64,000 nucleotides of DNA from Acidobacteriota bacterium (GTDB lineage Bacteria; Acidobacteriota; Thermoanaerobaculia; Gp7-AA8), in contig JAFATB010000014.1 in assembly GCA_019244185.1 (NCBI GenBank), positions 32,001 through 96,000 of the forward strand, given 5' to 3'. Below are positions 17,034 through 61,434 of this stretch, piece by piece. Every line of letters begins with the position of its first letter. Position 1 is the stretch's first letter. Position numbers and translations under genes: made by a program. Under the pieces are notes generated by a model. The model made no database searches. It worked only from the letters and a program-made list of their open reading frames with translations, and was not told where the DNA came from.

Positions 17034-19925
17034 CTAGAAGAGCTTGAGGAAGACGACGTTCGCGACGAAGCCGTCCTGCGCGTTGCGGCCGATGGTCTTG
17101 CCGATGTCGAGGCGCAGCAGCGTGCCGTACGGGCCGACGGTCTGCCCCGCGATGCCGAGACCCTGGAACGGCTCGCGGCGCAAGCCGGCGCTCGCGTCGT
17201 CGACGACGGCGTGGTCGTAGAACGCCTCCATGCGGAACTGCTCGGAGAAGACGAAGCCGTACGAGAGGTGACCGAGGATCGCGCGCTCGGCGCGGACGGA
17301 GCCGGATTCGACGCCGTGCACGCGCTGCGCGCCGAAGAAGCCGAGCTCGTACTTCGAGAAGCGGTCGAGACGCGTGCCGTCGAGATAGTTCACGTCGACG
17401 CCGATACGCTGGAACTTCGGCAGGTAAAAGCTCTTGCCGATCGACGCGCCGAAATGCGCGAACGACTTCTGGGCCGGGTCGTATTCGGAGATGCCCGGCG
17501 CGCCCCACGGCTCCCATTCGCTGCGGCGGTTGTAGTCGTAGTACGCGGAGGCGCTGTAGCCGTGCCGCGCGTACTGCGCGCTCACGGACGGCGAGAAGAC
17601 GAACGTGTCCGACGGGATGACGAAGTCGGCCGCGGTGTCTTCCGCGCGCTGATACGTGAAGTGCGCGATGCCGAGGGACGCGTCGATCTTGCCGAAGCCG
17701 AAGACGGGATGTCCCGCGCGCAGCGTGAGCGACGCCGGCAGCGTTTTCACCGCTTCGGACGGCTGCTCCTCGCCGTTGCGGAACATCGTGTTCTGGAACG
17801 GCACCGCGAGGCCGAAGAAGTCGGCGCCGACGTTCGTGCGCGTGTTGCCGACGTTCGGATCGGTGGCATTCGCGGCCACGATCACGCCCGCGAAAAAGAC
17901 ATTGGTCTGAATGCCGCGATTGAGCAGGTTGAAGTTGAAGTAGTCGATGCCGCCGAGCGGGACGACCGGGTAGTCGAGACCGGCGTCGTGATGGATGCCG
18001 CCGAGCATGAAGAGGCGCGACGTGTCGAAGCCTTCCTTCACCTCGCGCGTGCCGTCGCCGCGCTTCTCGAGGTAGCGCATGCCCTCCGGCGTCTCACGCA
18101 CCATGCGCGCTTCCGACGCGGACGCCTCGGCGTGCAGGCGGTCGTACTCCGGCGGATCGAGCCGGTAGTTGGTGAAGTCGGTCGCGCGCTCGACGACGCT
18201 CGCGCGGCCGGCGGCGGAGATCACCTGCTGCGCGTGCACGTCGGACGGCAGCCAGACGATCAAACGCGGATCGGACTTCGCGACGTCGGCGGCGCTGAGC
18301 GGCTCGTGCGTGACGCTCGCGAACGGCGCGAAGTCGACGCGCTCTTCGTTCGACAGCACTTCGCCCGTGAGATGCAGTTGCACCGTCGCGACGCGGATGC
18401 GCGCCCACGTCCGCGCATCGATGAAGACGGTGCCGCGGTACAACGGTAGGTCGGCCGGTGCATTCGGCGGCGGCTCGAAGCGAACTTCGTAGACGTGATA
18501 GCCGTTCAGCTCCGTCTCGCGCACGAGCTCGTAGCGGTAGTCGTTGGTCAGATGGATGTCGAGCGGCAGCTGCGCGACTTTCTCCGGCTGGATGAGCGGC
18601 AGCTCGGGGATGCGCCCGTACTTCCACTTCACGCCGTTGATGTAGAAGTCCTGCCAGACCCAGTCCGAGCTGCCGTGCGGGTCGGAGAAGTAGTCGCCGG
18701 CGATGGTGGCCTCGATTGCGTCGGCGCCGCTGCCGATGTCGAAGCGCAGCTTGGTCGTGTTGCGCGCAATCGTGCGCGGCACGAGGGTGTCCTGATAGGC
18801 GCGGTACGCCTGATGGTTGCGGATGATCTCTTCGACCGAGATGCCGCGCTGCGTGGCGACGCTGATCGATTCCTTCGTGACGTTGTGCTCCGGCTTCTCC
18901 GCGTGCTCGACGAGCACCGCGTACGGCGCGGTCGTCGCCGGCGTGCCGACGAGCAGGCGTCCGTTCTTCTGTCCCGTGTCGGTGATCGCGCGCTCGCCCG
19001 CGGCGTCGATGCGGCGCGGCGTCGTGTAGCGCTCGCCCGGCAGCGCGAGGATCGACGCGGACGCGGCGTCGCCGCGTGCGACGAGCAGCGTGCGCAGGTC
19101 TTCGCCGCGCACGAACGTGAGCACCGGCATGTCGATGCTGTTGCCTTTCGCATCGAGCACCGCGGTCTTGGACGTCGAGTCGAACGCCCAGTCGCCGGTC
19201 ATGGTGCGGTTGAACTGCGCGAGCGCACGCGCGTCGGCGGGGCCGGATGCGTACGCGCGCGACGCGCCGGCGGCGAGCGCCTGCGCGAGATCGAACAGAG
19301 GATTCGGCGACTGCAGGGCGGTGACGGCGTAGATCTTCTTCGAAGGATCGTGCTCGGCCAGCGTTGCCAGTGTGATCGGAACGTACTGCGCATAGACGAC
19401 GACCGCGTCAAAGTACGAGCCGGCGCCGCTCTCGAACGCGTCGATCAACTCGGAGTGGTCGTGCAGCTCCATGCTCACGTTCGCATACATCGCGTTGCGG
19501 TTGTCGAAGAGGATGCGCTGCGCCGCCTGTTGTCCCTGGGCCATCACCGAGAGCCGTTTCGTGGCGTAGGCGACGAGCGCCGGATCGGTGCTGTCGATAT
19601 GCACGCCGATCGCGTCGAACGGGCCGTGCGCCTTCGCCCAGTCGACGATCGCTTTCGTCTTCTGTTCGACGTCGTCGACGTTCGCGGCTTTGTAGTCGAT
19701 GACGACGGCGACGTTCGCGGCATTGGCCGCGGCATACGTCGCGTAGTTGCTCTCATCGAGCCGGACGAGCGCCGGCGCGACGACGCCGTCGCCACCGAGC
19801 TGGCCGACGCAGAGCGTGCAGGCGCCCGGCGTCTGCGAGGGTGCGGGCGTCTGCGCCAGCGCGGCCGGTGGGACGCCAATTTGCAAAAGCGGGACGAGCA
19901 GTAGAAGGAAGGACAGTTTTTTCAT
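17034..19925 (-). CDS. Large secreted protein, probable C-terminal outer-membrane beta-barrel; function unknown
   Basis: Signal peptide MKKLSFLLLL; aromatic amphipathic beta strands; C-terminal VANVVFLKLF. Confidence 0.65.
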   Translation of the reverse strand: MKKLSFLLLLVPLLQIGVPPAALAQTPAPSQTPGACTLCVGQLGGDGVVAPALVRLDESNYATYAAANAANVAVVIDYKAANVDDVEQKTKAIVDWAKAHGPFDAIGVHIDSTDPALVAYATKRLSVMAQGQQAAQRILFDNRNAMYANVSMELHDHSELIDAFESGAGSYFDAVVVYAQYVPITLATLAEHDPSKKIYAVTALQSPNPLFDLAQALAAGASRAYASGPADARALAQFNRTMTGDWAFDSTSKTAVLDAKGNSIDMPVLTFVRGEDLRTLLVARGDAASASILALPGERYTTPRRIDAAGERAITDTGQKNGRLLVGTPATTAPYAVLVEHAEKPEHNVTKESISVATQRGISVEEIIRNHQAYRAYQDTLVPRTIARNTTKLRFDIGSGADAIEATIAGDYFSDPHGSSDWVWQDFYINGVKWKYGRIPELPLIQPEKVAQLPLDIHLTNDYRYELVRETELNGYHVYEVRFEPPPNAPADLPLYRGTVFIDARTWARIRVATVQLHLTGEVLSNEERVDFAPFASVTHEPLSAADVAKSDPRLIVWLPSDVHAQQVISAAGRASVVERATDFTNYRLDPPEYDRLHAEASASEARMVRETPEGMRYLEKRGDGTREVKEGFDTSRLFMLGGIHHDAGLDYPVVPLGGIDYFNFNLLNRGIQTNVFFAGVIVAANATDPNVGNTRTNVGADFFGLAVPFQNTMFRNGEEQPSEAVKTLPASLTLRAGHPVFGFGKIDASLGIAHFTYQRAEDTAADFVIPSDTFVFSPSVSAQYARHGYSASAYYDYNRRSEWEPWGAPGISEYDPAQKSFAHFGASIGKSFYLPKFQRIGVDVNYLDGTRLDRFSKYELGFFGAQRVHGVESGSVRAERAILGHLSYGFVFSEQFRMEAFYDHAVVDDASAGLRREPFQGLGIAGQTVGPYGTLLRLDIGKTIGRNAQDGFVANVVFLKLF

Positions 19926-19975
19926 GAGATTCCGCGTATTTCCGGCGTTTTTCAACGCCGTGGCGTGAGCTGAAA

Positions 19976-22623: not shown

Positions 22624-25545
22624 TCACGTCTGCGCGATCGCATCGTCGGACAACACAAAGGAGCTCTGCGCGAGATCGGCACCCGGCTCGAGCAGATCGG
22701 GGAAGACGATGCCGGGGAGCACCTGGATGTCGAAGATCTCCTGCACCGAGCCTTCGAAGCGCACGAACGCCACGATCGCGCCGCTGCGGACATCGATCGC
22801 CCAGATGCCGCAGGAGCGCTCGTCCGCGCGCAGCCGCTCGCCGAGAGGGATGTTGTCGAAGACGCGCTCGCGCACCTGCGAGAGTCCGACGAACGCGATC
22901 GGTCCCGCGAACGCGAGTCCGCGCGTGAAGCCGGGAAGCTGGGCGATGGTCTCGCGCCGTCCGCTGCGCAGGTCGAGCGTGGCAAGCGTGCCGGCGGCGC
23001 TCTCGAGGATGTAGGCCTGTCCGTTGTAGAGGCGGGGCGAGTGCGGCATCGCGAGTCCCGTCGCCACGAGCTCGCCCGTCGGGATGTCAATGACGATGCC
23101 GCCGCTCGCTTTCCGCTCGCGCCAGCCTTCGGCGGTGTCGGTGGCGCCGAGGGCGGTGGCGTAGCGCGGCACACCATCGACGATCGCGAGGCCGTTGAGG
23201 TGGCAGCGGTCCTCCGCGGCGAGCTTGCTGATGAACGGCGGACGCCAGCGCGGCAGGAAGCTGTGCTCGGAGTCGAGCGTGCAGAGCGCGGAGAAGCGCG
23301 TGTTCACGAGCCACAGCTCGCCGTCGTCCGCGAAGGCCAGCTCGTGCACGCGGATGTCGCCGGTGACGTGCATGTTGCGCGGGAGGAAGCACGCGTCGTG
23401 ACGCGCGGGATGCAGGCGCGCCGCGGCGCTCGGGACGTTGCGGTAGTCCCAGATTTCACCGAGCGTTCCGATCGCGAGGCGAGTGCCGTCGAAGGCGAGT
23501 CCCATCGGGCTCGCGAAAAAACGGAAGTGCGTGTTCAGCCGCTCGCCGTCGGCGCGCAGCAGCACGACGCGGCCGCTCTGATACGTCGAGACCGCGAGCG
23601 AGATGCGCAGCTCCGCGAGCAAGCGCGGGAAGTTCGTCGTGTGCACGCTGCGGAAGTCGGTCGCGTTTTGCGGCGGCGCATCGGCCGACGTTGGATTCGC
23701 GGCCGGCGCGCGCGCCGCCGATGCGGGCATCGTGCGCTGCCGCGGCGCGGACGCGAAGAGATCGCGCGCACGCGCCGCCGCTGGCTCGATGAGCGGCAAG
23801 AGTGGCGCGAGCTCCGTCGCATTGCGCTGCCACTTCGCGGCATCCGGCGGCGTCAGCGTGTGCCGCGACGGCGGGAGCGGCGCCGTGAGCGTGCGGTCCC
23901 AGCGCAGCCCGACGTAGTCGCAGAGCCGCTCCATCGTTTCCTGCGGCTGCTCGATCAGCGCGTCGTAACTCGCCACGCACCACGATTCCGGCGGCAGCAT
24001 TTCCAGATCGTCGAGCACGACCGTCGTCGCCGCGATCCACTGCCGCGCGACGACCTCCGCCAGCGGCCGGCCGATCGTGTCGCGCCAACCCGGCGTCAGC
24101 AGCAGCGACCACGGTTGTCCTTCCCATCCCGGCAAGTCGGGATACGTGATGAAGCGTCCCGATCGCCACGCGTCGAGCATGCTGCTGATCGTCGCCCGCT
24201 CGTCGCGGTAGAGATAGATGAAGAACGCGTCGGCGAAGAGCGCGCGCAGAAACGGGATGCGCAGCGCGTTCTTCGGCGTCTTCTCGAGAAAGCGGAAGCG
24301 ATGCGTCGCCGGCGCGCGCCCGTCGCGGTCGACGGCAGCGGAGGCGAAGCGCGCACGCAAATCGTCCGCGACGGATTCGCTCGCATCGGGCGCCGTCAGC
24401 CGGTTCGACTCCCAGCCGTGCGCGGCGGGATGCAGCGCGCCGATGCCTTCGATGAGCGCGTGACTCTCGCCGCCGATGGTCATCACCTCCGGCGCCTGCG
24501 CGAGCGTTTCGAAGAGCAGCGACGATCCGGAGCGCGGCGACGAGACGATGAAGATCGGACGATCGAATGCGTTGCGGCTGCGCGCGATCGACGGCGCCGT
24601 GCGGCGCGCGAGATCGGTGTTGAGCGCGGGACGGAGCAGGATCTGCTGCACGGCCTGCGCGGCATCGATGCCGTTCGGCAGCATCCACGCGCCGAGGTGC
24701 CGCGCGATGCGCTGCTCGGTCAGCTCGAGCAGTTCGGCGTACGCGCGCCAGCCGCGCGGCGCCGCCTCGTGCATGCGCCAGAGCGACTGCCACGCGTCGA
24801 GGAAGCGCACGACCTCGTCGCGCAGCGCGCGTCCGGCGGCGCTCGCGTCGAGATCGGCGGCGAAGATCTCGAAGAGCGCATGTTGTTCCGCCGGCGCCAT
24901 CACCACCGGGAAGTTGTGGACTTCCATGCGCGGCTCCGCGGATCGCGCTTCATCGAATGCGATCGTGGTTGCCTCGGGCGCAGGCGCGCCGGAAAACGGA
25001 TCCCAGCCTTCGTCGATGAGCGCGCGCAGGCGCGGCGAGCCGGCCGTGTCCGCGACGAGATGAATGCGCCGCGTCGGATTCGGATTGATGACGTTGTGCA
25101 GGCGCCACGTATCGAAGATCCACGTCTCGCCGGGCGCCATGTGCAGCTCGCGGTCGCCGCAGAGAAAGCGCACCGCGGGATCGGTGACGATCGGCACGTG
25201 CACGCGCACGCGCGTCTGCCAGTAGTAGTTCACGTCCACATGCGCGGTCGCCTCGGCATTGCCGTCGATGCGCATCAGCCGCGTGCGTCCGATCGGCGCC
25301 TCGAATGCGGCGAGCAACTGCCGCAGCGCCGAACAACGCGCCAGGTGCGGCGTCGCGCGCATCTCGCCCTTCACGCCATCGTCGTTGGGATCGCCTCCGA
25401 CCGCGATCAGCGGCAGCGCGAAATTGCCGGGATGACCTTCGGGATGCGGACGCCAGTCCGACTCGGCGAACGCGGACACCTCCGCCGCCAGTCGCGCCGC
25501 GTCGAAGTGCAGGGGAAGTCGAAGGAATTCAATGGGTAACCGCAT
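22624..25545 (-). CDS. Fusion of an aspartyl/asparaginyl beta-hydroxylase-like 2OG-Fe(II) domain, a sulfotransferase and a TIGR03032-family domain
   Basis: HVD...RVHVPI...FDTWRLHNVIN...RIHLVAD; IFIVSSPRSGSSLL, EKTPKN, YRD; SVHTTNFP..LAVSTYQSG, EDRCHLNGLA, GLAMPHSPR; GGAG SD before the ATG at 25545. Confidence 0.85.
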   Translation of the reverse strand: MRLPIEFLRLPLHFDAARLAAEVSAFAESDWRPHPEGHPGNFALPLIAVGGDPNDDGVKGEMRATPHLARCSALRQLLAAFEAPIGRTRLMRIDGNAEATAHVDVNYYWQTRVRVHVPIVTDPAVRFLCGDRELHMAPGETWIFDTWRLHNVINPNPTRRIHLVADTAGSPRLRALIDEGWDPFSGAPAPEATTIAFDEARSAEPRMEVHNFPVVMAPAEQHALFEIFAADLDASAAGRALRDEVVRFLDAWQSLWRMHEAAPRGWRAYAELLELTEQRIARHLGAWMLPNGIDAAQAVQQILLRPALNTDLARRTAPSIARSRNAFDRPIFIVSSPRSGSSLLFETLAQAPEVMTIGGESHALIEGIGALHPAAHGWESNRLTAPDASESVADDLRARFASAAVDRDGRAPATHRFRFLEKTPKNALRIPFLRALFADAFFIYLYRDERATISSMLDAWRSGRFITYPDLPGWEGQPWSLLLTPGWRDTIGRPLAEVVARQWIAATTVVLDDLEMLPPESWCVASYDALIEQPQETMERLCDYVGLRWDRTLTAPLPPSRHTLTPPDAAKWQRNATELAPLLPLIEPAAARARDLFASAPRQRTMPASAARAPAANPTSADAPPQNATDFRSVHTTNFPRLLAELRISLAVSTYQSGRVVLLRADGERLNTHFRFFASPMGLAFDGTRLAIGTLGEIWDYRNVPSAAARLHPARHDACFLPRNMHVTGDIRVHELAFADDGELWLVNTRFSALCTLDSEHSFLPRWRPPFISKLAAEDRCHLNGLAIVDGVPRYATALGATDTAEGWRERKASGGIVIDIPTGELVATGLAMPHSPRLYNGQAYILESAAGTLATLDLRSGRRETIAQLPGFTRGLAFAGPIAFVGLSQVRERVFDNIPLGERLRADERSCGIWAIDVRSGAIVAFVRFEGSVQEIFDIQVLPGIVFPDLLEPGADLAQSSFVLSDDAIAQT

Positions 25546-25701
25546 AGCTCCGGCAAAAAGCATCGACAGGCGGGGGTTCCGCTCCGATAATCCCATAGTT
25601 TCCAACTTTGGCCGAAACGGAGACCTTCCCTGAAACCTCGTGACCAACGCCCTTCCTCGCAGTTCGACCGGCGATCTGCGGAGATCGGCGCGCGACGCTC
25701 G

Positions 25702-28700
25702 GTGCTCCGTGACTCGAAGCCGTCAGGGTCCCTCGCCGCCGCGATCGCCGCCGGCGCCGTGACGCTCACCGCCGCCGGCGCACAGGCGGCGACCATCACC
25801 GTCAACTCGATTGCGGACAACACGACCGCCGGCGATGCGCAATGCACGCTGCGCGAGGCGCTCGCGAACGCGAATGCGAACGCCGACACGACCGGCGGCG
25901 ACTGCGTGGCGGGCAGCGGCGCCGACACGATCAACCTGACCGCGCTCGCGGGCACGATCACCCTCGGCGGCACGCAGCTGACGATCAGCGATTCGACGAC
26001 GCTCACCGGTCCCGGCGCCTCCACGCTGACCATCGACGCGGCGAGCAACTCCCGCGTCTTCTACATCTACAACAACGCAACCGCGCTCACCGTATCGATC
26101 AGCGGACTCACGGCGACGCGCGGCCGAGGGGCGACCGGCGGCAACATCGTCGCGAAGGGCGAGATCGTCACGCTGAACGGCGTCACCTTGAGCGGTGGTG
26201 TGGCGGCGACGGCGGGCGGCGGCGTCGCCAATGTCGGCGGATCGCTCACCGTTCGCTCGAGCACGATCAGCGGGAACACCGTCCAGGGCGTCGTTGGCGG
26301 CGCCGCGATCTACAACGTCGGCGGAGCGCTGACCGTCGACACGTCCGTGATCACGTCGAACTCCGCGAGCTCCCTCGCGGCGCGCGCTGGTGCGATCGCC
26401 ATCCTGTCGACCACCCAGCCCGCCAGCATCACCAATACGCAGATCACGAACAACACGAGCGTCGCAAAGGGCGCCGCCTTCGGCGTGAAAACGACGGCCG
26501 CGGGCGGAACGCTCACCATCGATCACAGCGTCATCACCGGAAACACGGCCACCGGCCGTGGCGGTGCGTTCTTCCTTTATCGGAGCGGCGGCGCGATCAC
26601 GCTGTCGCACGATCAGATCAACAACAACACGACCCAGAACCGCGGCGGCGCGATCTTTCTCTACAACGCCAGCGCGAACGTCACCATCAGCGACACCACG
26701 ATCTCCGGAAACACCGCGCCGACCGCGGCTGGAAACGGCGGAGGCATCTTCTTTTACAAAGGCAGCGCCGGCACGAAACTGTCGATCCAGCGCAGCACCA
26801 TCAGCGGCAACTCGGTGAATCGCGCCGGTGGCGGCATCTTCTTTTACAAAGGCAGCGCACAGCTGGAGATCGAAGACTCCACGATTGCCAACAACACCGC
26901 CGGCACGACCGGTGGCGGCATTTTCGACAGGGGGCCTTTCGGCGGGACCGCGTCGATCGCAATCGGTGAGTCGACCATCACCGGCAACAGCGCGGGCACG
27001 AGCGGCGGGAATCTGAGCGTCACCGCGGTTCCGATGACGATCGACAACACGATCGTCGCCAACGGCACGGCGCCGGCGAGCCCGGACATGGCCAGCGGCG
27101 CCTCCAACGTAACCATGAACTACTCGCTGCTCGAGAACACCTCGGGTGCGACGTTCACCGGAACGGGCAATATCACCGGCGTCGATCCCAGTCTCGGACC
27201 GCTGCAGGACAACGGCGGCCCGACGTTCACCCAACGGCCGAACATCGGCAGCCCGGTGCTCGACGCCGGCGATCCGTCCTTCACGCCGCCGCCCAGCACC
27301 GACCAGCGCGGTCTGCAGCGCGTCTACAACGGACGCATCGACATCGGCTCGCTCGAGCAGGGAGCGATGAGCTCCATCTCGTTCTCCACTGCCGGCGCGA
27401 CGATCTCCGAGGGTGCGGGGTCGGTGACGGTCACGGTGAATCGCGGCAGTGGCGAAGGCACGGCAAGCGTCAACTACTCGACGAGCAACGGCACGGCGCA
27501 AGCGGGCGCCGATTACACGGCCACCTCCGGCACGCTGACGTGGGGATCCGGCGACTTCACACCGAAGTCGTTCACGATTCCGATCCTCGAAGAAGCGATC
27601 TTCGAAGGGAACGAGTTCTTCAACGTGACGCTCAGTGCGCCGTCGAACGCGACGCTCGCGGCACCGGCGGCGGAGACGGTGACGATCGCGGACAACGATC
27701 CGCAGCCTGCGCTCTCCATCAACGGCGTCTCGCAGGCGGAAGGGAACTCCGGCACGACGAGCTTCCCGTTCGTGGTCTCGCTGTCGAATCCGTCCGCGCA
27801 GACGGTGACGGTGAACTACACGACCGTGAACGGCACGGCCATCGCCGGCAGCGACTACACCGCGCAGAGCGGCACGCTCACGTTCGCGCCCGGCACCACC
27901 GTCCAAACCATTCCGGTCTCCGTCCTCGGCGATGCGCTCAATGAGGCGAGCGAGACATTCACCGTGACGCTCTCCTCCCCGACGAACGCCACCATCGCGA
28001 CGACCACCGGCACGGGCACGATCGGCAACGACGATCCGCAGCCGTCGCTGTCGATCGGCAGCGTTGCGAAAGCCGAGGGAAACAGCGGCAGTACGAGCTT
28101 CGTGTTTCCGGTCACGCTCTCCGCGCCGAGCGGGCAGACGGTGACGGTCGCGTACGCGACGGCGAGCGGCAGCGCGACCGCGGGCAGCGACTACACGACC
28201 ACCAGCGGCACGCTCACGTTCACGCCGGGCACGACGGCGCAGAACATCACCGTGCCGGTGACCGGCGACACGACGAACGAGACGAACGAAACGTTCACCG
28301 TGACGCTGTCCGCGCCGACGAACGCCACCATCGGCACCGCCACCGGCACAGGCACGATCGACAACGACGACGCTGCTCCGGCGGTGTCGGTCGGCGACGT
28401 CACGCAGGCCGAGGGAAACAGCGGCAGCACGAGCTTCGTCTTTCCGGTGACGCTGTCCGCGGCCAGCGAGCAGACTGTGACCGTCAACTACTTGACTTCC
28501 GACGGCAGCGCCGTCGCGGGCAGCGACTACACCGCGGCCAGCGGCACGGTCACGTTCGCGCCGGGCGTGACGTCGCAGTCGATCTCCGTGGCGGTCGTCG
28601 GCGACACGACCAAAGAGCCGAGCGAGACGTTCACCGTGACGCTCAGCGCGCCGTCGAATGCGATGCTCGGCACCGCGTCCGCGACCGGCACGATCGTCGA

Positions 28701-31700
28701 CGACGACAGCGCGCCGGTGCTCGCGATCGGCAACGTCTCGCAGGCCGAAGGCAACAGCGGCACGACGACATTCTCGTTCCCGGTCACGCTCTCCGCGCCG
28801 AGCGGACAGACGGTCACCGTGAGCTACGCCACCGCGAACGGCAGCGCCGTCGCCGGCAGCGACTACGGTGCGACCAGCGGCACGCTCACGTTCGCGCCGG
28901 GCGTGACGTCGCAGACCGTGAACGTGCCGGTCACCGGCGATCTCACGAACGAGGCCGACGAGACGTTCACGGTGACGTTGTCGTCATCGACGAACGCGGC
29001 CATCGCAACGGCCACCGGCACCGGCACGATCGTGAACGACGACGCGCCGCCGCTGCTGTCGATCGACGACGCCTCGCAACCGGAAGGCAACAGCGGCTCG
29101 GCGAGCATGCCGTTCGCGGTGACGCTCTCGACGCCGAGCGAGCAGTCGATCACGGTCAACTACACGACGTCCAACGGCAGCGCGGTCGCCGGCAGCGACT
29201 ACACGGCCACGAGCGGCACGCTGACGTTCGCTCCCGGCGCGACGGTGCAATCGATCAATGTCCCGATCAGCGGCGACACGACGGCGGAGACGAACGAGAC
29301 GTTCACGGTGACGCTGAGCGCGCCGTCGAATGCGGCCATCGGCGACGGCAACGCGACCGGCACCATCGTGAACGACGACTCCGGTCCCGTCGTCTCGATC
29401 AGCGGCGTCTCGCAGGCGGAGGGGAGCGGCGGGACGTCCGCGTTCACGTTCAACGTGACGCTGTCGCAGGCCAGCGAAGAGACCGTGACCGTCAACTACT
29501 TGACCAGCAACGGCAGCGCGATCGCGGGCAGCGATTACACCGCCGCCAGCGGCACGCTCACGTTCGCACCCGGCGTGACGTCGCAGACGGTCACCGTGAC
29601 GGTCATCGGCGATACGACCAGCGAGCCGGACGAAATGTTCTCGGTCATGCTTTCCGCGCCGGTGAATGCGAGCGTCGGCACCGCGTCCGCGACCGGCACG
29701 ATCGTCGACGACGACACCGCGCCGGTGCTCGTCATCGGCAACGTGTCGCAGTCCGAAGGCACGGGCGGCTCGACCACGTTCACGTTCCCCGTCAGTCTCT
29801 CCGCGCCGAGCGGACAAACCGTCACCGTCCATTACGCGACCGCCGACGGATCCGCGGGCGCAGGCAGCGATTACGGCGCGACGAGCGGCACGCTCACGTT
29901 CGCGCCGGGCGTGACGACGCAGACGGTCGACGTGCCGGTCACCGGCGATGCCACGAACGAAGCGAACGAGACGTTCACGGTGAACCTCTCCGCCTCGACG
30001 AACGCCGCCATCGCCACCGCGACCGGCACCGGCACGATCGTCAACGACGATCCGGTGCCGTCCCTCTCGATCGCGGGGACGGCGCAGGCGGAAGGGAACA
30101 GCGGGCTCACGAACATGCCCTTCGTCGTGACGCTGTCCGCGGCGAGCGAACAGACCGTAACGGTCAACTACTTGACGAACAACGGCAGCGCAATCGCGGG
30201 CAGCGACTACACCGCCACGAGCGGCACGCTCACGTTCGCGCCCGGCGTCACGTCGCAGACGATCGACGTACCGATCGCCGGCGACACCACCTCGGAGACG
30301 GACGAGACCTTCACCGTCACGCTCGGCACGCCGTCGAACGCGGCCATCGCCGTCAGCAGCGCCACCGGCACGATCGTCAACGACGATGCCGGTCCGGTAC
30401 TCTCGATCGACAGCGTCTCGCAGGCCGAAGGCAACAGCGGCACGAGCAACTTCACATTCAACGTCACGCTCTCCGCGCCGAGCGAGCGCACCATCACCGT
30501 GCAGTACGCGACCGCGGACGGCAGCGCGACCGCGGGCAGCGATTATGTCGCGACGAGCGGCACGGTTGCGTTCGCGCCCGGCGTGACCTCGCAGAACGTC
30601 GTCATCGCGGTGAACGGCGACACGGCGAACGAGCCGGCGGAGACGTTCAGCGTCACGCTCTCGTCGCCGGTCAACGCCACGATCGGCACGGCCAGCGGCA
30701 GCGGCACGATCGTCGACGATGACGGCGCGCCGGTGCTCGCGATCGGCAACGTCTCGCAGGCCGAGGGCAACAGCGGCACGACCACGTTCTCGTTCCCGGT
30801 CACGCTCTCCGCGCCGAGCGGCCAGACCGTGACCGTGCAGTACGCGACCGCGAACGGCAGCGCCGTCGCCGGCAGTGACTACGGCGCGACGAGCGGCACG
30901 CTCACGTTCGCGCCCGGCGTGACCTCGCAGAACGTCGATGTGCCGGTCACCGGCGATCTCGCGAACGAAGGCGATGAGACGTTCACGGTGACGCTGTCGT
31001 CGTCGACGAACGCCGCCATCGCCACGACCACGGGAACCGGCACGATCGTCAACGACGACGGCGGTCCCACGGTCACGATCGCCGACGCATCGCAGGCGGA
31101 AGGCGACAGCGGCAGCTCGAATCTCTCGTTCGCGGTGACGCTCTCCGCGCCAAGCGAGCAGACCGTCACCGTCAGCTACGCCACCGCGAACGGCACCGCG
31201 ACCGCCGGCAGCGACTACACCACGACGAGCGGCCTGCTCACGTTCGCGCCCGGCGTGACCGCGCAGACGATCGACGTCCCCGTCATCGGCGACACGAACA
31301 TCGAGCCCGACGAAACGCTCTCGCTGCAACTCTCCGGCGCGACGAACGCGACGATCATCCGCGCGCAGGCGACCGGCACGATTCTCAACGACGACGGCGC
31401 GGTCACGCCCGCGATCTCCGTCAGCGACGTCTCCGTCCTCGAAGGCAGCGCCGGTACCACGCCCGCGACCTTCACCGTGACGCTCAGCGTTCCGACGACG
31501 CAGACGGTGACGGTGCACTACACGACGACGTCGGGCAGCGCGCAGGCGGGCGCCGACTTTGCGCCCACGCAGGGCACGCTCGTCTTCGCGCCCGGTACGA
31601 CCTCGCAGACCGTGACCGTCGGCGTCGTCGGCGACACTGACGTCGAAGCCAACGAGACCTTCACCCTCGATCTCTCCGCGCCCGCGGGCGCGACGATCGC

Positions 31701-32769
31701 GCGCGCACGTGGCACGGCCACGATCGTGAACGACGACTACGCGGCGCCGCCGTCAACGCTGCCGGCGCTTCGCATCAGCGACGTGCGCGTCGCGGAAGGC
31801 GATCGCGGTCTCAGCGACGCCACGATCGTGGTGACGCTCAGCGCGCCGAGCGCCACCGACGTCACCGCCGACTTCAGCACCGCCGACGGCACGGCGACCG
31901 CCGGCGTCGATTACGCCGCGACGTCCGGCTCGGTCGTCGTTCCCGCCGGCACGCTGTCGCGCGCGATTCACGTGCCGATCGTCGGCGACACCGCGGTCGA
32001 AGGCGACGAGACGTTCCACGTCCGCCTCTCCGGCGCGAACGGAGCGACGATCGCGTCCGGCGATGCGACGGTGACGATCGTCAACGACGATGCGGCCGCC
32101 ACGGAAACGCGCGCGTACATCGCCGTCGCCGGCGCGACGCCCGGCGCATTCGGCTCGTTCTTCCGCACGACGCTCCAACTGCACAACGACAGCGACGCCG
32201 CGGCGTCGGGCAGCATTGTCTTCCATCTGATGACCGGCGGCACGCCGGCCACCGTTCCGTACACGCTCGCGCCGCACGAGACGAAGGTGCTCGACGACGC
32301 GGCGCTGTCCGCCGGCATCGGCACCGCGGATGTCGTCGCGGAAGTCGGCGCGCTGCCGCTCGCGGTCGTGCGCATCACCAGCACGTCGCCGTGTGGCACG
32401 GTCGGTCTCGCGACGGAGTCGCTCGATCCGGTGCGCGACGCGCTCACGGTTTCCGACCGTGCGATTCTGCTCGCGCCCTCCGACCTCGGCACGTCGCGCT
32501 TCAACATCGGCGTCCGCGCGATCGGTCACGACGCGACGCTGCACCTTACGCTTCGCGATCGCAGCGGCAACGTGAAGACGCGCGTCGATCGCCAGTTCGA
32601 CGCCGACACGCTCGTCCAGGTCGCCGCCTCCGATCTCCTCGGCGTCGCCGTCGCCGCGGACGATTCCGTGCTCGTCGAAGTCACGTCCGGCACGGCCATC
32701 GTCTACGCCTCCACCACCGACAACTCCTCGCAGGATCCGGCCATCCAGCTCGCCCGTCCGCTCCCCTGA
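25702..32769 (+). CDS. Giant surface protein/adhesin: CSLREA-like motif, beta-helix with choice-of-anchor-Q-like end, 14 Calx-beta repeats, C-terminal domain
   Basis: CTLREA; GGAIF/GGGIF repeats; LGPLQDNGGPT...TDQRG...DIGSLE; 14 ~112-aa repeats ending in NDD/DDD/DND; start may lie upstream (in-frame CTG at 25630 after GGAGA). Confidence 0.9.
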   Translation: MLRDSKPSGSLAAAIAAGAVTLTAAGAQAATITVNSIADNTTAGDAQCTLREALANANANADTTGGDCVAGSGADTINLTALAGTITLGGTQLTISDSTTLTGPGASTLTIDAASNSRVFYIYNNATALTVSISGLTATRGRGATGGNIVAKGEIVTLNGVTLSGGVAATAGGGVANVGGSLTVRSSTISGNTVQGVVGGAAIYNVGGALTVDTSVITSNSASSLAARAGAIAILSTTQPASITNTQITNNTSVAKGAAFGVKTTAAGGTLTIDHSVITGNTATGRGGAFFLYRSGGAITLSHDQINNNTTQNRGGAIFLYNASANVTISDTTISGNTAPTAAGNGGGIFFYKGSAGTKLSIQRSTISGNSVNRAGGGIFFYKGSAQLEIEDSTIANNTAGTTGGGIFDRGPFGGTASIAIGESTITGNSAGTSGGNLSVTAVPMTIDNTIVANGTAPASPDMASGASNVTMNYSLLENTSGATFTGTGNITGVDPSLGPLQDNGGPTFTQRPNIGSPVLDAGDPSFTPPPSTDQRGLQRVYNGRIDIGSLEQGAMSSISFSTAGATISEGAGSVTVTVNRGSGEGTASVNYSTSNGTAQAGADYTATSGTLTWGSGDFTPKSFTIPILEEAIFEGNEFFNVTLSAPSNATLAAPAAETVTIADNDPQPALSINGVSQAEGNSGTTSFPFVVSLSNPSAQTVTVNYTTVNGTAIAGSDYTAQSGTLTFAPGTTVQTIPVSVLGDALNEASETFTVTLSSPTNATIATTTGTGTIGNDDPQPSLSIGSVAKAEGNSGSTSFVFPVTLSAPSGQTVTVAYATASGSATAGSDYTTTSGTLTFTPGTTAQNITVPVTGDTTNETNETFTVTLSAPTNATIGTATGTGTIDNDDAAPAVSVGDVTQAEGNSGSTSFVFPVTLSAASEQTVTVNYLTSDGSAVAGSDYTAASGTVTFAPGVTSQSISVAVVGDTTKEPSETFTVTLSAPSNAMLGTASATGTIVDDDSAPVLAIGNVSQAEGNSGTTTFSFPVTLSAPSGQTVTVSYATANGSAVAGSDYGATSGTLTFAPGVTSQTVNVPVTGDLTNEADETFTVTLSSSTNAAIATATGTGTIVNDDAPPLLSIDDASQPEGNSGSASMPFAVTLSTPSEQSITVNYTTSNGSAVAGSDYTATSGTLTFAPGATVQSINVPISGDTTAETNETFTVTLSAPSNAAIGDGNATGTIVNDDSGPVVSISGVSQAEGSGGTSAFTFNVTLSQASEETVTVNYLTSNGSAIAGSDYTAASGTLTFAPGVTSQTVTVTVIGDTTSEPDEMFSVMLSAPVNASVGTASATGTIVDDDTAPVLVIGNVSQSEGTGGSTTFTFPVSLSAPSGQTVTVHYATADGSAGAGSDYGATSGTLTFAPGVTTQTVDVPVTGDATNEANETFTVNLSASTNAAIATATGTGTIVNDDPVPSLSIAGTAQAEGNSGLTNMPFVVTLSAASEQTVTVNYLTNNGSAIAGSDYTATSGTLTFAPGVTSQTIDVPIAGDTTSETDETFTVTLGTPSNAAIAVSSATGTIVNDDAGPVLSIDSVSQAEGNSGTSNFTFNVTLSAPSERTITVQYATADGSATAGSDYVATSGTVAFAPGVTSQNVVIAVNGDTANEPAETFSVTLSSPVNATIGTASGSGTIVDDDGAPVLAIGNVSQAEGNSGTTTFSFPVTLSAPSGQTVTVQYATANGSAVAGSDYGATSGTLTFAPGVTSQNVDVPVTGDLANEGDETFTVTLSSSTNAAIATTTGTGTIVNDDGGPTVTIADASQAEGDSGSSNLSFAVTLSAPSEQTVTVSYATANGTATAGSDYTTTSGLLTFAPGVTAQTIDVPVIGDTNIEPDETLSLQLSGATNATIIRAQATGTILNDDGAVTPAISVSDVSVLEGSAGTTPATFTVTLSVPTTQTVTVHYTTTSGSAQAGADFAPTQGTLVFAPGTTSQTVTVGVVGDTDVEANETFTLDLSAPAGATIARARGTATIVNDDYAAPPSTLPALRISDVRVAEGDRGLSDATIVVTLSAPSATDVTADFSTADGTATAGVDYAATSGSVVVPAGTLSRAIHVPIVGDTAVEGDETFHVRLSGANGATIASGDATVTIVNDDAAATETRAYIAVAGATPGAFGSFFRTTLQLHNDSDAAASGSIVFHLMTGGTPATVPYTLAPHETKVLDDAALSAGIGTADVVAEVGALPLAVVRITSTSPCGTVGLATESLDPVRDALTVSDRAILLAPSDLGTSRFNIGVRAIGHDATLHLTLRDRSGNVKTRVDRQFDADTLVQVAASDLLGVAVAADDSVLVEVTSGTAIVYASTTDNSSQDPAIQLARPLP

Positions 32770-37321: not shown

Positions 37322-37833
37322 TCGGACAAAACCTGCACTTCGGGGATGTTGCGGTACTTCTCCGCGAAGTCGAGGCCGTAGCCGATCACGAACTGCGGGT
37401 CGATGCTGAAGCCGACGTACTCGGGCGTGAACGGCACCTTGCGCGCCTTCGGCTTGTCGAGGAACGCCGCGGTCTTCACTTTCGCCGCGCCGCGGCTCTC
37501 GATGTAGTTGTGCACCTCGCGGATGGAGAGGCCGCTGTCGATGATGTCCTCGACGATCAGCACGCTCTTGCCGCGCATGTCGAGCTGCGGCTCCTTGAGG
37601 ATCGTGACCACGCCCGACGAGTATTTCTGGTTGCCGTAGCTCGAGATCTGGATGAAGTCGAGCGCGACGTCCATGGTCATGTTGCGCACCAGATCGGCGC
37701 AGAAGAACATCGCTCCTTTGAGCACGCAGAGCGCGATCAGTTCCGTGCCGGCGAACTCCGCTTCGATCTCGCGCGCCATCTCGGCCACGCGCCCGTCGAT
37801 CTGTTCACGAGAGATTAACGTCGTCTGTGCCAT
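37318..37833 (-). CDS. hpt: Hypoxanthine phosphoribosyltransferase
   Basis: VLKGA, VLIVEDIIDSG, FVIGYGLD..EKYRN. Confidence 0.95.
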   Translation of the reverse strand: MAQTTLISREQIDGRVAEMAREIEAEFAGTELIALCVLKGAMFFCADLVRNMTMDVALDFIQISSYGNQKYSSGVVTILKEPQLDMRGKSVLIVEDIIDSGLSIREVHNYIESRGAAKVKTAAFLDKPKARKVPFTPEYVGFSIDPQFVIGYGLDFAEKYRNIPEVQVLSD

Positions 37834-37864
37834 TCGTGCCAGAATCATAGCATCGGGTTTCAAC

Positions 37865-39427
37865 GTGTCCGTCGCTGACGTCGAAGCACTCCATGCACGC
37901 TACGTGAGGGTCGCCGATCGCTTCAAAGCGATCTGGACGTACCACCAGTTCGCGACGGGAATCTTCCGCAATCTGCTCGACCGGCCGGCGCCGTATCAGC
38001 TCGATTTCAAGCGCGTCTACGAACGCATCCGCAAGGCCGGCGGGAAGCTGAATGAAGCCGAAGCCGCCGACGCGCGCGACGCCCTCGATGCCGCCGCACG
38101 CGCCCTCGACGACGCCACGAAAGCGCTCCTCGGCGCCGACGACGCCATCGCCACCTCGCTCGTCCGCCGCTTCTTCGACAAGCTCAATCTCAAAGACGAA
38201 GAGATCATCTACTTCCTCATCAAGTTCTATCTCTACGCGGACGCCGTCGAAGGCGACCGCCGCGACAAGCTCGATTTCTTCTTCACGCGCATCGGCGAGG
38301 AACTGCTGCCCGAGCGCGGCGCCTACATCTCGCGCGAGTCGCTCGAGTTCCGCGAGCGCGTCATCGCCCTCGTCTCCGCGATGCGCACCGCGCCCGCGCC
38401 GCGCGACGAGGTGCTGCGCATCATCCGCGCGATCCGTTCGATGCGCGACGAGATGCAGCAGGCCACGACGTTCGAGGACCTGACCGACCGTCACCTGCTG
38501 AAGAACGCGCGCACGTTCAAGCACCGCATCGGCGATCTCTACTTCGACCCCGACGTGCTCCTCGCCGTCGTCGAGCTGAATGTCGCCGCGAAGAACCGCT
38601 TCATCGAGCTCTATCAAATCGAGGAGCAGCGCATCCTCGAGGACTCGCAGAAGCTCCTCGCGCACGGCGACGCGATCGAGCGCAACTTCGGCGAGACGAA
38701 CCCCGAGCTCGCCGAAGCGATCGGCCGGTTCCGCGAATACAAGGAGCGCTTCGACGCGCTGCGCGCGGAGTCGAACGTGAAGCACGACCTCGTGACGCAG
38801 CTCAAGACCAGCATCGGCGAGGTGCTCTCGCAGCTCGACCGCGGCCTCGCGCAGGACTCGGCCAGCATCGACGACGACGTCGAGGAACTGCCGCCGGCGT
38901 TCTTCGACGAACAGCAGCAGGTCGAGACGATGAGCGAGCGCTTCGGACGCCACGATCCGCTGCTGCCGCAGCTCGTGCGCATCGCGTCGGCGCTCGACTA
39001 TCTCTCCGTCGAGATCGCACCCGAAGAAGTGATCGAGCTGCCCGCCGCGCGCGAGCTGCGCCTCGAGGCGTGGGAAGTGGCCGCGTATCAGAAGCTCTTC
39101 GAGCGCCGGCCGCCCGACGCGGAAGAGGATACCGAGGAGCTGTGGATGCTGTTCGTGCGCGCGGCGGCGCTGCGGATCAAGGTGGACGAAGAGGCGACGA
39201 TCCTCGCCACGACGATGGCCGCCGGCGTGAGGCCGGAACCGGAGCTGCTCGCGCGCGCGAAGAAGAGCCTCGACCTCGCGAAAGAGCTCGACGAGCAGTT
39301 CGGCGACTTCCTGCAGGAGGCGGTCTACTACTCGAACCGGCCGATCCTGCACCAGCTCTACCGTTCGCGTTTCCGGCTGCTGCGCGGCTTCTCGGGGCTC
39401 TGGCTGATTTATGATCGCCAGTCGTGA
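37865..39427 (+). CDS. Hypothetical alpha-helical protein
   Basis: Long ORF with coding-like codon usage, overlapping the next gene; GTG start inferred. Confidence 0.7.
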   Translation: MSVADVEALHARYVRVADRFKAIWTYHQFATGIFRNLLDRPAPYQLDFKRVYERIRKAGGKLNEAEAADARDALDAAARALDDATKALLGADDAIATSLVRRFFDKLNLKDEEIIYFLIKFYLYADAVEGDRRDKLDFFFTRIGEELLPERGAYISRESLEFRERVIALVSAMRTAPAPRDEVLRIIRAIRSMRDEMQQATTFEDLTDRHLLKNARTFKHRIGDLYFDPDVLLAVVELNVAAKNRFIELYQIEEQRILEDSQKLLAHGDAIERNFGETNPELAEAIGRFREYKERFDALRAESNVKHDLVTQLKTSIGEVLSQLDRGLAQDSASIDDDVEELPPAFFDEQQQVETMSERFGRHDPLLPQLVRIASALDYLSVEIAPEEVIELPAARELRLEAWEVAAYQKLFERRPPDAEEDTEELWMLFVRAAALRIKVDEEATILATTMAAGVRPEPELLARAKKSLDLAKELDEQFGDFLQEAVYYSNRPILHQLYRSRFRLLRGFSGLWLIYDRQS

Positions 39428-42422: not shown

Positions 42423-43448
42423 TCACCCGTTGTTCCACGATGTTCCACGCTTTCGCGCCTCTTCGTACGCTTCCGCGGTGCGTTCCGCGCATCGTTTCCA
42501 GGTGAAGACGCGCGCGCGCGCGACGCCGCGAGCGGCTAGTTGCGCGCGCAGCGATGCGTCCCGCGCGACGCGCAGCATCGCATCCGCGAGCACGTGCGCA
42601 CCGCGCGCGTCGGCGTGCAGCGCGGCGTCGCCGGTGACTTCGACGAGCGCGGGCGCGAGCGAGGTGATGACCGCGGTGCCGCACGCCATCGCTTCCGCGG
42701 CAGGAAGTCCGAAGCCTTCTTCACGCGACGGCATCACCAGCGCGAGCGCGCCGCGGTAGAGCGCGAACAGTTCGTCGTCGCTGACGCGGCCGCGCGCGAC
42801 GACGCCGTCGACATGCGCGAATCGCGCGAACGGCGCGCCCGCAAGCACGAGCCGCACGTCCGGCAACTCGCGGCGGACGTGCGCGAAAGCCTCGACGAGG
42901 GTGCCCACGTTCTTGTGCGGCTTGTCATTGCCGACGAAGAGAAAGTCGCGGCCCGGCGACGCGACGCCGGCGGGCACGTCGACGCCATTCGGCGTGACGA
43001 CCACCTCGCGCGCGCCGAGCTCGCGCTCGAGCTGGAGGCGCACGCTCTCGCTCACTGTGAGCACGCGCGCGGCCTTCCGCACCGCCCGCCGCAGCATCGT
43101 CCGCGCGTACACGCGAGCCAGCGGATGCAGCGGCTGGTGCAGATGAATGAGGTCGTGGATCGTGACCACGACCGGCAGCCGCGTGAACGGGACGACGTAG
43201 TGCGGCGCATGCAGCACGTCCACGCCCGCGCGCTCCGCCGCGCGTCCGACGACGAGCAACTCGCGCACCGAGTAATGCGGCGCATCGACGACGACGTGCT
43301 CGACACCGTCGGGAAGCGCCGCGTCCGCTGGCGCGAACGCGACGTACGTGTCGCCACGCTCCAGCGCGACGAGCCCGCGCAGCAGGCCGCGGATGTACGT
43401 GCCGATCCCAAAGTCGGCGATCTTGCGCGCGTCGATGCCTACGCGCAT
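42423..43448 (-). CDS. Glycosyltransferase family 4 (GT-B)
   Basis: MRVGIDAR, VTIHDL, PHKN, EGFGLPAAEAMACG. Confidence 0.9.
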   Translation of the reverse strand: MRVGIDARKIADFGIGTYIRGLLRGLVALERGDTYVAFAPADAALPDGVEHVVVDAPHYSVRELLVVGRAAERAGVDVLHAPHYVVPFTRLPVVVTIHDLIHLHQPLHPLARVYARTMLRRAVRKAARVLTVSESVRLQLERELGAREVVVTPNGVDVPAGVASPGRDFLFVGNDKPHKNVGTLVEAFAHVRRELPDVRLVLAGAPFARFAHVDGVVARGRVSDDELFALYRGALALVMPSREEGFGLPAAEAMACGTAVITSLAPALVEVTGDAALHADARGAHVLADAMLRVARDASLRAQLAARGVARARVFTWKRCAERTAEAYEEARKRGTSWNNG

Positions 43449-44440: not shown

Positions 44441-44444
44441 CTCG

Positions 44445-45653: not shown

Positions 45654-45673
45654 CGGCGCGGGATCGTAGCAGC

Positions 45674-53810: not shown

Positions 53811-53869
53811 GCCCGCTTTCGACACGCCGCGCAACCGCTTGTGGCGCGCGCCACCTTTCGCGCGGAAGC

Positions 53870-61164: not shown

Positions 61165-61187
61165 GATGAAGAAGCCGCCGTTTTCGA

Positions 61188-61263
61188 TGGCGCGCCCTGA
61201 GGGATTCGAACCCCCAACCAGCGGTTCCGAAGACCGCTGCTCTATCCGTTGAGCTAAGGGCGC
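61188..61263 (-). tRNA. tRNA-Arg (anticodon UCG)
   Basis: GCGCCCT/AGGGCGC acceptor stem, anticodon arm GCGGT-CTTCGGA-ACCGC, GGTTCGAATCC, encoded CCA; 76 nt. Confidence 0.93.
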
Positions 61264-61344
61264 GCAGGCGCCGCGCCATCGTACTCGACACGCCGCCGCT
61301 CCGTGAATAGAATGCGCGCCCACGCTGTTCCGGTGGTTCCTTAC

Positions 61345-61420
61345 GCCGATGTAGCTCAGTTGGTAGAGCAGCTGATTCGTAATCAGCAGGTCACCGGTTC
61401 GAGTCCGGTCATCGGCTCCA
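61345..61420 (+). tRNA. tRNA-Thr (anticodon CGU)
   Basis: GCCGATG/CATCGGC acceptor stem, anticodon arm GCTGA-TTCGTAA-TCAGC, GGTTCGAGTCC, encoded CCA; 76 nt. Confidence 0.95.
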
Positions 61421-61434
61421 TCTGCATCAACGAC

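Follow-up and report, generated by a model that had tools for sequence, protein, structure and literature searches.

A hydroxylase-sulfotransferase-DUF4915 fusion encoded beside a giant beta-helix/CAQ protein suggests a candidate system for modifying bacterial surface proteins before export

What does a bacterial polypeptide that joins a hydroxylase, a sulfotransferase and a domain of unknown function act on, and is the giant exported protein encoded head-to-head with it the substrate? This question is raised by a gene pair in a 64,000-nucleotide stretch (hereafter, the window) of the genome of an Acidobacteriota bacterium (Thermoanaerobaculia, Gp7-AA8; assembly GCA_019244185.1, contig JAFATB010000014.1, positions 32,001 to 96,000 of the forward strand). 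The initial annotation of the window, made from the sequence alone, interpreted the pair as a fusion enzyme that hydroxylates and then sulfates the neighboring adhesin. By comparing related loci, we found that genes encoding the third domain of the fusion, DUF4915/TIGR03032, recurrently lie next to genes for beta-helix proteins with a choice-of-anchor Q domain (CAQ, NF041518). It is plausible, if somewhat short of probable, that the 973-aa fusion protein is a dedicated cytoplasmic tailoring enzyme for the neighboring surface protein, by analogy with the HMW1C/HMW1 and TibC/TibA pairs.

The fusion gene occupies positions 22624..25545 on the minus strand and encodes 973 aa plus a stop codon; its start was set by alignment with 20 homologues and its domains by Pfam and NCBIfam searches. 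Read from the first TTG, the full open reading frame (ORF; 22624..25647, minus strand) comes to 1007 aa, but the true start is the ATG at 25545 (MRLP, Met35) because all 20 aligned homologues begin there. Residue numbers below refer to the 1007-aa translation (P0001) and to the 2355-aa giant protein (P0002). From the N terminus, the fusion protein consists of a 2-oxoglutarate (2OG) hydroxylase, a helical linker, a sulfotransferase and a DUF4915/TIGR03032 beta-propeller. The matches to PF05118, PF13469 and PF16261/TIGR03032 are all above the cut-offs and the motifs HxD...H, PRSGSS, EKTP and YRD are all present, in agreement with the three-domain fusion that had been read from the sequence alone. 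No signal peptide was found on inspection of the 973-aa translation, and a glycosyltransferase domain is absent by Pfam and NCBIfam.

The divergent spacing between the two start codons, previously put at about 150 bp, measures 156 bp (25546..25701). A promoter scan placed a sigma-70-like site, TCGACA-17-GATAAT, at 25563-25591, directed toward the giant gene; this is weak evidence because the scan gave one site against 0.5 expected in shuffled sequences. The giant gene itself (25702..32769, plus strand) encodes 2355 aa plus a stop codon. The protein starts with a probable Sec signal peptide, read by eye (25702..25788; residues 1-29, ...AGAQA/ATITV), followed by a CTLREA motif and a right-handed beta-helix with Pmp-like GGxIF rungs (25795..27183; residues ~32-494; Beta_helix PF13229, E 1.6e-7). 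Despite the CTLREA motif, CSLREA_Nterm (TIGR04214) scored 19.7 bits, under the cut-off of 25. The CAQ domain (27184..27360; residues 495-553) scored 63.2 bits against a cut-off of 25 and has the motif LxxNGGxT...SP..D.G...DQRG...DIG..E. It is followed by the 14 tandem Calx-beta repeats that had been noted earlier (27358..32073; residues 553-2124; PF03160, 14 stretches, E 3e-267), which have a period of ~112 aa by self-search and alignment and end in NDD (10 repeats), DDD (3) or DND (1). The C-terminal ~230 aa (32074..32766) are unmatched in Pfam and NCBIfam, and no sorting signal was recognized there in a search of NCBIfam sorting domains. All of these features lie on the plus strand. An adhesion role of the giant protein is an assumption.

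To place the pair in context, we examined the best-scoring 80 of at least 598 genomic matches, which yielded 79 loci with up to 10 kb of sequence per flank. Genes in these loci were called with a longest-ORF/GC3 heuristic, so that many of the called starts lie too far upstream and a small number of the calls are wrong. A search with residues 1-553 of the giant protein gave 41 matching ORFs in the 79 loci, and their positions relative to the DUF4915 gene are far from even: homologues account for 28 of the 142 ORFs directly adjacent to it, five of the 125 two genes away, four of the 112 three genes away and none of the 410 at a distance of four or more genes. Per locus, with phmmer hits and CAQ hidden Markov model (HMM) hits combined, an adjacent partner is present in 28 of the 79 loci and in 24 of the 46 well-flanked loci, that is, those with at least 3 kb on both sides. 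Because 28 of the 79 loci have an adjacent partner, the linkage of fusion homologues to large exported repeat proteins, on which the initial annotation had staked its proposal, holds.

The 79 loci include 12 with the three-domain fusion, 11 with a sulfotransferase-DUF4915 protein and 51 with DUF4915 alone or with other extensions. Rarer architectures are hydroxylase-DUF4915 without a recognizable sulfotransferase (two loci), a split hydroxylase-sulfotransferase gene beside a separate DUF4915 gene (one locus) and a hydroxylase-sulfotransferase gene with no DUF4915 nearby (two loci, L075 and L078). An adjacent partner was found for the three-domain fusion in 8/12 loci, for sulfotransferase-DUF4915 in 4/11 and for DUF4915-only genes in 16/51, which supports DUF4915/TIGR03032 as the domain that carries the linkage to the partner. 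Unsupervised all-vs-all clustering of the neighboring ORFs gave the same picture: the beta-helix/CAQ family forms the largest cluster, with 46 proteins from 32 of the 79 loci, and the next in size consist of generic kinases, in 12 loci, and regulators, in 11. In the window, there is a single CAQ ORF and a single DUF4915 ORF, and the two are mutually adjacent.

What is conserved in the partner is the beta-helix together with CAQ (P0002 residues ~30-553), and Calx-beta is accessory. CAQ scored above the cut-off in 33 of the 35 beta-helix neighbors submitted to NCBIfam, whereas Calx-beta is present in just eight of the 34 CAQ-positive partners, seven of them acidobacterial and one from a Gemmataceae planctomycete. 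Thus, the earlier proposal of a Calx-beta protein as the partner stands as far as the linkage to an exported partner is concerned, but not in the choice of Calx-beta as its conserved part. An HMM built from the 14 repeats matched neighbors in nine loci only (L001-L004, L010, L024, L031, L069 and L076), and Calx-beta was accordingly rejected as a general link. The CSLREA motif was rejected as well, being present in two of the 41 partner ORFs; a literature search for it returned, in the portions of text available, unrelated Acinetobacter studies. Among adjacent partners, Calx-beta was found in five of the eight that accompany three-domain fusions, compared with 1/4 for sulfotransferase-DUF4915 and 1/16 for DUF4915-only genes; lineage and function are inseparable here because all five are Acidobacteriota. 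As judged by eye and with an N-terminal hydrophobicity window, 27 of the 39 examined partners of at least 300 aa have a hydrophobic, signal-peptide-like N-terminal segment, and several follow the pattern of the giant protein, RRK...AQA/ATFTV.

In a tree of the DUF4915 domain, CAQ adjacency extends across all major clades and seven phyla (Acidobacteriota, Actinomycetota, Verrucomicrobiota, Planctomycetota, Cyanobacteriota, Pseudomonadota and Chloroflexota). The CAQ label requires 23 changes on the tree, and 73 of 500 shuffles were as low, so the label is unclustered; the linkage is therefore pervasive rather than limited to one lineage, and the tree consequently offers no evidence for subfamily-specific co-evolution with CAQ. 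The sister of the DUF4915 domain from the window belongs to L001, a Thermoanaerobaculia metagenome-assembled genome (MAG; Shimodaira-Hasegawa approximate likelihood ratio support of 98), in which the divergent neighbor is a smaller giant with CSLREA, a beta-helix, CAQ, two Calx-beta repeats and DUF11.

A second class of partners consists of FG-GAP proteins, which are adjacent to DUF4915 genes in the planctomycete loci L069, L070 and L076 (3/142 adjacent ORFs, none elsewhere); by Pfam, an FG-GAP neighbor is also present in L054 and L039. The respective FG-GAP/VCBS genes lie at L069 7151-9889, L070 2841-4595, L076 7853-9886, L054 3037-5325 and L039 11184-13718; two of the proteins carry Calx-beta and one a cyclophilin domain. 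The FG-GAP label is clustered on the DUF4915 tree (four changes, with one of 500 shuffles as low), and the DUF4915 enzyme family may have switched its partner class in this planctomycete clade. In L012 (7235-20957), an Alcanivoracaceae MAG, two DUF4915 genes, a three-domain fusion and a DUF4915-only gene, are interspersed among three CAQ beta-helix genes; this is a locally duplicated array, because the two DUF4915 domains are mutually closest.

The domain that carries the linkage spans residues 668-997 of the fusion protein (22657..23646, minus strand) and contains the invariant motifs DRCHLNG, MPHSPR, PGFTRGL and GLSQVRE. It matches DUF4915 (PF16261) at residues 672-985 with E 2.3e-121 (405.3 bits against 35) and TIGR03032 at residues 668-997 with 406.1 bits against a cut-off of 251.5. 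Databases annotate the family as 'hypoth_equivalog' or as a domain of unknown function, and our literature search found no description of TIGR03032, DUF4915 or PF16261. The family is large: an exhaustive HMMER search with the C-terminal domain gave 4356 clusters at 50% identity with E <= 1e-3, 1114 of them at E <= 1e-30. The structural model of the domain is an all-beta propeller (predicted local distance difference test score, pLDDT, 95.8; predicted template modeling score 0.93). A Foldseek search against the PDB, in which we looked for an enzyme relative, gave generic propellers only (designed SAKe, Kelch, NHL, YVTN and LDL-receptor; TM-score ~0.5, 10-15% identity); the clusters from an ESM Atlas search were unnamed or TIGR03032, apart from one with 20% NHL.

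In an alignment of 42 DUF4915 sequences, D154, C156, H157, R213, R250 and E311 (domain numbering) are invariant and H109, H210, C128 and C287 are nearly so. By the model, the conserved polar residues would lie at the first strands of one blade after another, or immediately ahead of them. Active or ligand sites of propellers are usually found at such positions. The invariant Asp, Cys, His, Arg and Glu are no less compatible with an enzyme than with a docking module, and a role of TIGR03032 purely as the substrate recognizer proposed earlier is not supported. DUF4915-only proteins start a few hydrophilic residues ahead of the domain, and a signal peptide was seen by eye on none of the 59 examined, some N termini being over-extended ORF calls.

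DUF4915 is repeatedly joined to different group-transfer enzymes. In a Pfam survey of 49 DUF4915 proteins, picked for length beyond the domain and thus non-random, the fusion partners were GT41 (eight proteins, mostly with tetratricopeptide repeat (TPR) arrays), GT2 (six), a weak GT9-like match after TPRs (three), GNAT (three), sulfotransferase (eight) and hydroxylase (five). The DUF4915-TPR-GT9-like proteins are those of L022, L023 and L026, the first flanked by four beta-helix/CAQ genes, and a GNAT-DUF4915 protein is found in L063. Separately from these fusions, a small (~165-230 aa) conserved GNAT-like protein is encoded directly beside DUF4915 genes in eight to nine loci, mostly from Gammaproteobacteria (L034 12230-13262, L040 8252-8965, L047 2048-2542, L050 6683-7201, L055 9385-9936, L056 9345-10028, L058 11167-11676 and L070 1083-1568). 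The GNAT match is marginal (E 0.004, in one member) and the gene is absent from the window; the protein may be a separate acetyltransferase partner that matches the GNAT-DUF4915 fusions. In two unrelated loci (L044 7308-9650 and L057 11146-13158), a gene for a Ser/Thr protein kinase joined to an FGE-sulfatase domain, which is formylglycine-generating enzyme-like, adjoins the DUF4915 gene.

The N-terminal domain of the fusion protein is a 2OG-Fe(II) oxygenase with a double-stranded beta-helix core (24946..25545, minus strand; residues 35-234) that matches Asp_Arg_Hydrox (PF05118) at residues 98-201 with E 8.7e-11 (42.3 bits against a cut-off of 22.6). H136-x-D138, H184 and R194 are invariant across 21 aligned sequences, and the HxD...H triad and the arginine align with the iron and 2OG ligands, HRD...H...R, of L-proline cis-4-hydroxylase (4P7W, E 4e-5); judging from these residues, the domain seems competent for catalysis. 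When residues 35-360 were modeled (pLDDT 93.9), Foldseek retrieved 4P7W, 7V4F and 1E5R first and AspH and PHD2 later, with AspH at rank 10 and below (E ~3e-7). The solved relatives do not discriminate between a protein and a small-molecule substrate. The domain is followed by the helical linker (24568..24894, minus strand; residues ~252-360; DSSP helices at 218-325 of the 326-aa modeled construct), for which the Pfam search gave no family match.

The central domain is a sulfotransferase of the type dependent on 3'-phosphoadenosine-5'-phosphosulfate (PAPS) (23896..24558, minus strand; residues 364-584), with a PRSGSS loop (371-376), EKTPKN (EKTP, 455-458) and YRD...S (YRD, 480-482). It matches Sulfotransfer_3 (PF13469) over the same residues with E 2.8e-24 (87 bits against 27). 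In the PDB, its sequence matches are the CurM sulfotransferase (E 5.3e-7), TPST2 (2.2e-5) and TPST1 (3e-4); PRSGSS aligns with the PRSGS/T loops of CurM and TPST2, and YRD...S with RD..S of TPST2. A word-indexed search with the whole fusion protein gave 2993 proteins at E <= 1e-3 among 8000 candidates scored. The 120 best-listed homologues all share the three domains at 55-77% identity and come from, among other sources, Acidobacteria/Thermoanaerobaculia, Acidovorax and Brevundimonas; their sole name is 'TIGR03032 family protein'. The fusion architecture is thus already in the databases under an uninformative name.

How might such a protein act? We propose that the 973-aa enzyme would remain in the cytoplasm and that its propeller would engage the neighboring protein, as the presumed substrate, before export, most likely at the beta-helix/CAQ part. 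The fused oxygenase would then add a hydroxyl and the sulfotransferase a sulfate to the partner, which would subsequently be exported via Sec. Because the 2OG/Fe and PAPS cofactor systems are cytoplasmic, the enzyme has no signal peptide and the partner has a probable one, the two could meet only before export. Candidate target residues are the near-invariant Asn/Asp of CAQ, the ladder residues of the beta-helix or the acidic motifs of Calx-beta; the sulfate acceptor could be the newly made hydroxyl or Tyr/Ser/Thr, and the propeller could serve for docking alone or catalyze a step itself. The fixed order of hydroxylation followed by sulfation, as first envisaged, is not obligatory, because the two modules occur separately: sulfotransferase-TIGR03032 alone is found in 11 loci, compared with 12 full fusions, and hydroxylase-TIGR03032 alone in two.

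A wider reading, which we regard as rather unlikely when all its parts are taken together, is that DUF4915/TIGR03032 is the docking or catalytic hub of a widespread, so far unrecognized modular system that would mark CAQ beta-helix surface proteins in the cytoplasm with hydroxyl, sulfate, hexose/heptose or acetyl groups, depending on the fused or adjacent enzyme, in at least seven phyla, with FG-GAP proteins as the partners instead in a planctomycete clade.

Several points weigh against a dedicated enzyme-substrate pair. The case rests wholly on gene context and domain logic. An adjacent partner is missing in 51 of the 79 loci, including 22 of the 46 well-flanked ones, and the loci are the top-scoring part of the matches and not a random sample. 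The two loci with a hydroxylase-sulfotransferase and no DUF4915 (L075 and L078) have no adjacent partner (0/2), and the hydroxylase-sulfotransferase module can therefore work elsewhere. Among the 39 partners, 12 have no obvious signal peptide, several of these being, by eye, cyanobacterial or planctomycete. The closest solved hydroxylases use free amino acids (4P7W and 1E5R) or a nucleoside-antibiotic intermediate (7V4F), and CurM, which gives the sulfotransferase its best match in the PDB, has a carrier-bound polyketide as its substrate. Since its structural matches are generic only, the propeller fold gives no functional lead. Furthermore, fusions to GT2, GT9-like, GNAT and sulfotransferase domains would be just as characteristic of enzymes that tailor glycans. 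A complex prediction for the DUF4915 domain and the CAQ region of P0002 scored 0.00 against a mark of 0.32; the fold of the partner was uncertain in it, and the result is neutral on binding.

The alternative that survives best, though we consider it unlikely, is that DUF4915 enzymes modify a polysaccharide, lipopolysaccharide or glycolipid and that the beta-helix protein binds or processes the same polymer; the initial annotation had itself allowed for the adhesin 'or its glycan'. Polysaccharide lyases and epimerases classically have a right-handed beta-helix fold, the models matched by the neighbors include NosD, Beta_helix and para_beta_helix, and in L020 a beta-helix occurs together with RTX repeats; yet what the partners have are Pmp-like repeats and signals for surface anchoring (IPTL-CTERM and rhombotarget-like), and they lack catalytic lyase signatures. 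Similarly, the GT2, GT9-like, GNAT and sulfotransferase fusions make up the usual glycan-tailoring set, and PF05118 also includes lipid A/Kdo hydroxylases, but the GT41+TPR fusions (8/49) belong to a family of protein glycosylation. No polysaccharide polymerase, flippase or export gene was found among the annotated adjacent genes of the 79 loci or the few larger ORFs beyond them, and the pair in the window is flanked by genes for a dynamin-like GTPase, a tRNA synthetase, RNase J and UppP.

It is less likely still that the fusion protein is a self-contained small-molecule pathway, in which a metabolite would be hydroxylated, sulfate would serve as a CurM-type leaving group and the propeller would eliminate or cyclize, the giant protein being unrelated or only indirectly related. 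The affinities of the two enzymatic domains, to free L-proline and nucleoside-antibiotic hydroxylases and to CurM, agree with this, the strong conservation of the fusion (55-77% identity among the 120 best-listed homologues) would fit a fixed small substrate, and the invariant Asp/Cys/His/Arg/Glu of the propeller suggest catalysis. However, such a pathway leaves unexplained both the adjacency to CAQ beta-helix genes, which DUF4915 retains in 16 of 51 loci without either enzyme, and the GT41+TPR fusions; moreover, neighbor clustering across the 79 loci revealed no conserved transporter or further biosynthetic genes near DUF4915. Finally, we doubt that DUF4915 is a non-catalytic cytoplasmic chaperone, targeting factor or regulator to which the fused enzymes are unrelated or modulatory: Kelch, NHL and WD-like propellers, the only kind of match found, typically bind proteins, 51 of the 79 loci lack a fused catalytic domain, and a chaperone role for HMW1A before export has been proposed for HMW1C in the available part of a review (PMC8151025), but D154, C156, H157, H210, R213, R250 and E311 recur at what the model suggests are inner-strand starts, and the fact that transferases were recruited to this domain time and again speaks for chemistry performed on a common substrate.

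A dedicated tailoring enzyme for the adjacent surface protein would have precedents. According to the accessible sections of PMC8151025, N-glycosyltransferases (NGT; HMW1C-like) and bacterial autotransporter heptosyltransferases (BAHT; TibC/Aah) attach sugars to beta-helix adhesins while these are still in the cytoplasm, ahead of export, and co-transcription of enzyme and target genes is frequent; in the HMW1C/EtpC-HMW1A/EtpA and TibC/Aah-TibA/AIDA-I/Ag43 pairs, too, a cytoplasmic enzyme is encoded beside a large exported beta-helix protein. The likeness extends to relatives of the DUF4915 domain of the window, which are fused to GT41+TPR and GT9-like domains. In contrast to the NGT and BAHT systems, the predicted chemistry in the window is hydroxylation and sulfation, the common module of the family is a beta-propeller, and the partner is probably a Sec-exported CAQ protein rather than a type V secretion passenger. 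The window enzyme falls outside the NGT and BAHT families because it has no glycosyltransferase.

Closer in chemistry are the bacterial operons for which Iyer et al. (2010) predicted hydroxylation and sulfation of co-encoded secreted proteins, the substrate being, as an excerpt of that paper has it, 'first hydroxylated ... then sulfated' (PMC2938197). They share with the window a 2OG oxygenase of the beta-hydroxylase family, a P-loop sulfotransferase and a co-encoded secreted protein; as described in that excerpt, the operons have separate enzymes, often a PAPS synthetase, and collagen-like or tail-collar proteins (PMC2938197). In the window, by contrast, the enzymes are fused to DUF4915, PAPS-synthesis genes and collagen-like or tail-collar substrate genes were not found among the annotated ORFs, and the co-encoded protein is of the beta-helix/CAQ type; the excerpt mentions neither DUF4915 nor a partner of this kind (PMC2938197). 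The CAQ partner in L029 (7410-10067; a Chthoniobacterales MAG) also has a collagen triple-helix repeat, recalling the substrates of Iyer et al.

The individual domains have better-known relatives as well. The sulfotransferase is of the same Pfam-level type as TPST1/2 and bacterial RaxST, which in Xanthomonas sulfates the secreted peptide RaxX, as reported in the available parts of two papers (PMC4646787, PMC4892823). The similarity to TPST1/2 is weak (E 2e-5 to 4e-4) and lies mainly in the PAPS-binding half, CurM scores better, and the window enzyme, unlike these, is fused to two other domains. CurM, a sulfotransferase-thioesterase, shares the logic of sulfating a beta-hydroxyl; it acts on its polyketide within a megasynthase, whereas a carrier protein and a thioesterase are absent from the window system. 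The hydroxylase has PF05118 in common with AspH but, unlike AspH, lacks TPRs (by Pfam) and an EGF substrate and is closer to the free-proline and nucleoside-antibiotic hydroxylases. It has a full HxD...H triad, whereas human AspH reportedly binds iron through two histidines.

The DUF4915-CAQ beta-helix pairing, the modular fusion pattern and the implied hydroxylation and sulfation of a protein appear to be undescribed in the literature searched. With the pairing, the orphan DUF4915/TIGR03032 family gains a defined class of partners and thereby a testable enzyme-substrate pair. The version in the window, if it acts as proposed, would yield a hydroxylated and O-sulfated bacterial surface protein; to our knowledge, this kind of modification has so far been seen only in eukaryotic extracellular proteins and in the small peptide RaxX. 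Likewise, the only cytoplasmic pre-export modifications of bacterial surface proteins we know of are N-hexosylation and O-heptosylation, a list that hydroxylation and sulfation would join if the partner is modified. In that case, the obscure CAQ domain would also gain a function, and the decade-old prediction of bacterial hydroxylation and subsequent sulfation of secreted proteins would gain an experimental example. Should the substrate instead prove to be a glycan or a metabolite, it would still have to be explained why the pairing with beta-helix proteins is conserved.

The window is GC-rich (~65-70%), and its remaining genes place the pair outside any larger biosynthetic island. The flanking genes are ordinary: a dynamin-like GTPase gene, convergent with the fusion gene, a lipid-kinase-like gene and genes for a class II tRNA synthetase, RNase J and UppP. 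An ORF at 17034-19955 (minus strand), located beside a diacylglycerol-kinase-like gene and a dynamin-like GTPase gene, also encodes 973 aa and has good coding statistics but no Pfam match; it is unrelated to the fusion protein, and the equal length is coincidental. Coding-like ORFs without a Pfam match are also found at 37652-39427, 42540-43709 and 45509-46900 (all on the plus strand). Two adjacent GT4 glycosyltransferase genes (43439-45686, minus strand) and a PMT_2 (ArnT-like) membrane glycosyltransferase gene (59596-61434, minus strand) lie at a distance of 10-27 kb, and related loci show no linkage between them and the pair. Between these glycosyltransferase genes, three neighboring genes at 50490-59599 together look like a defense or stress island: the first encodes 1222 aa with an RNase H-like domain and a superfamily 1 helicase domain, another, divergent and overlapping, a TerB-N/TerB/TerB-C protein, and the third a DEAD-box helicase.

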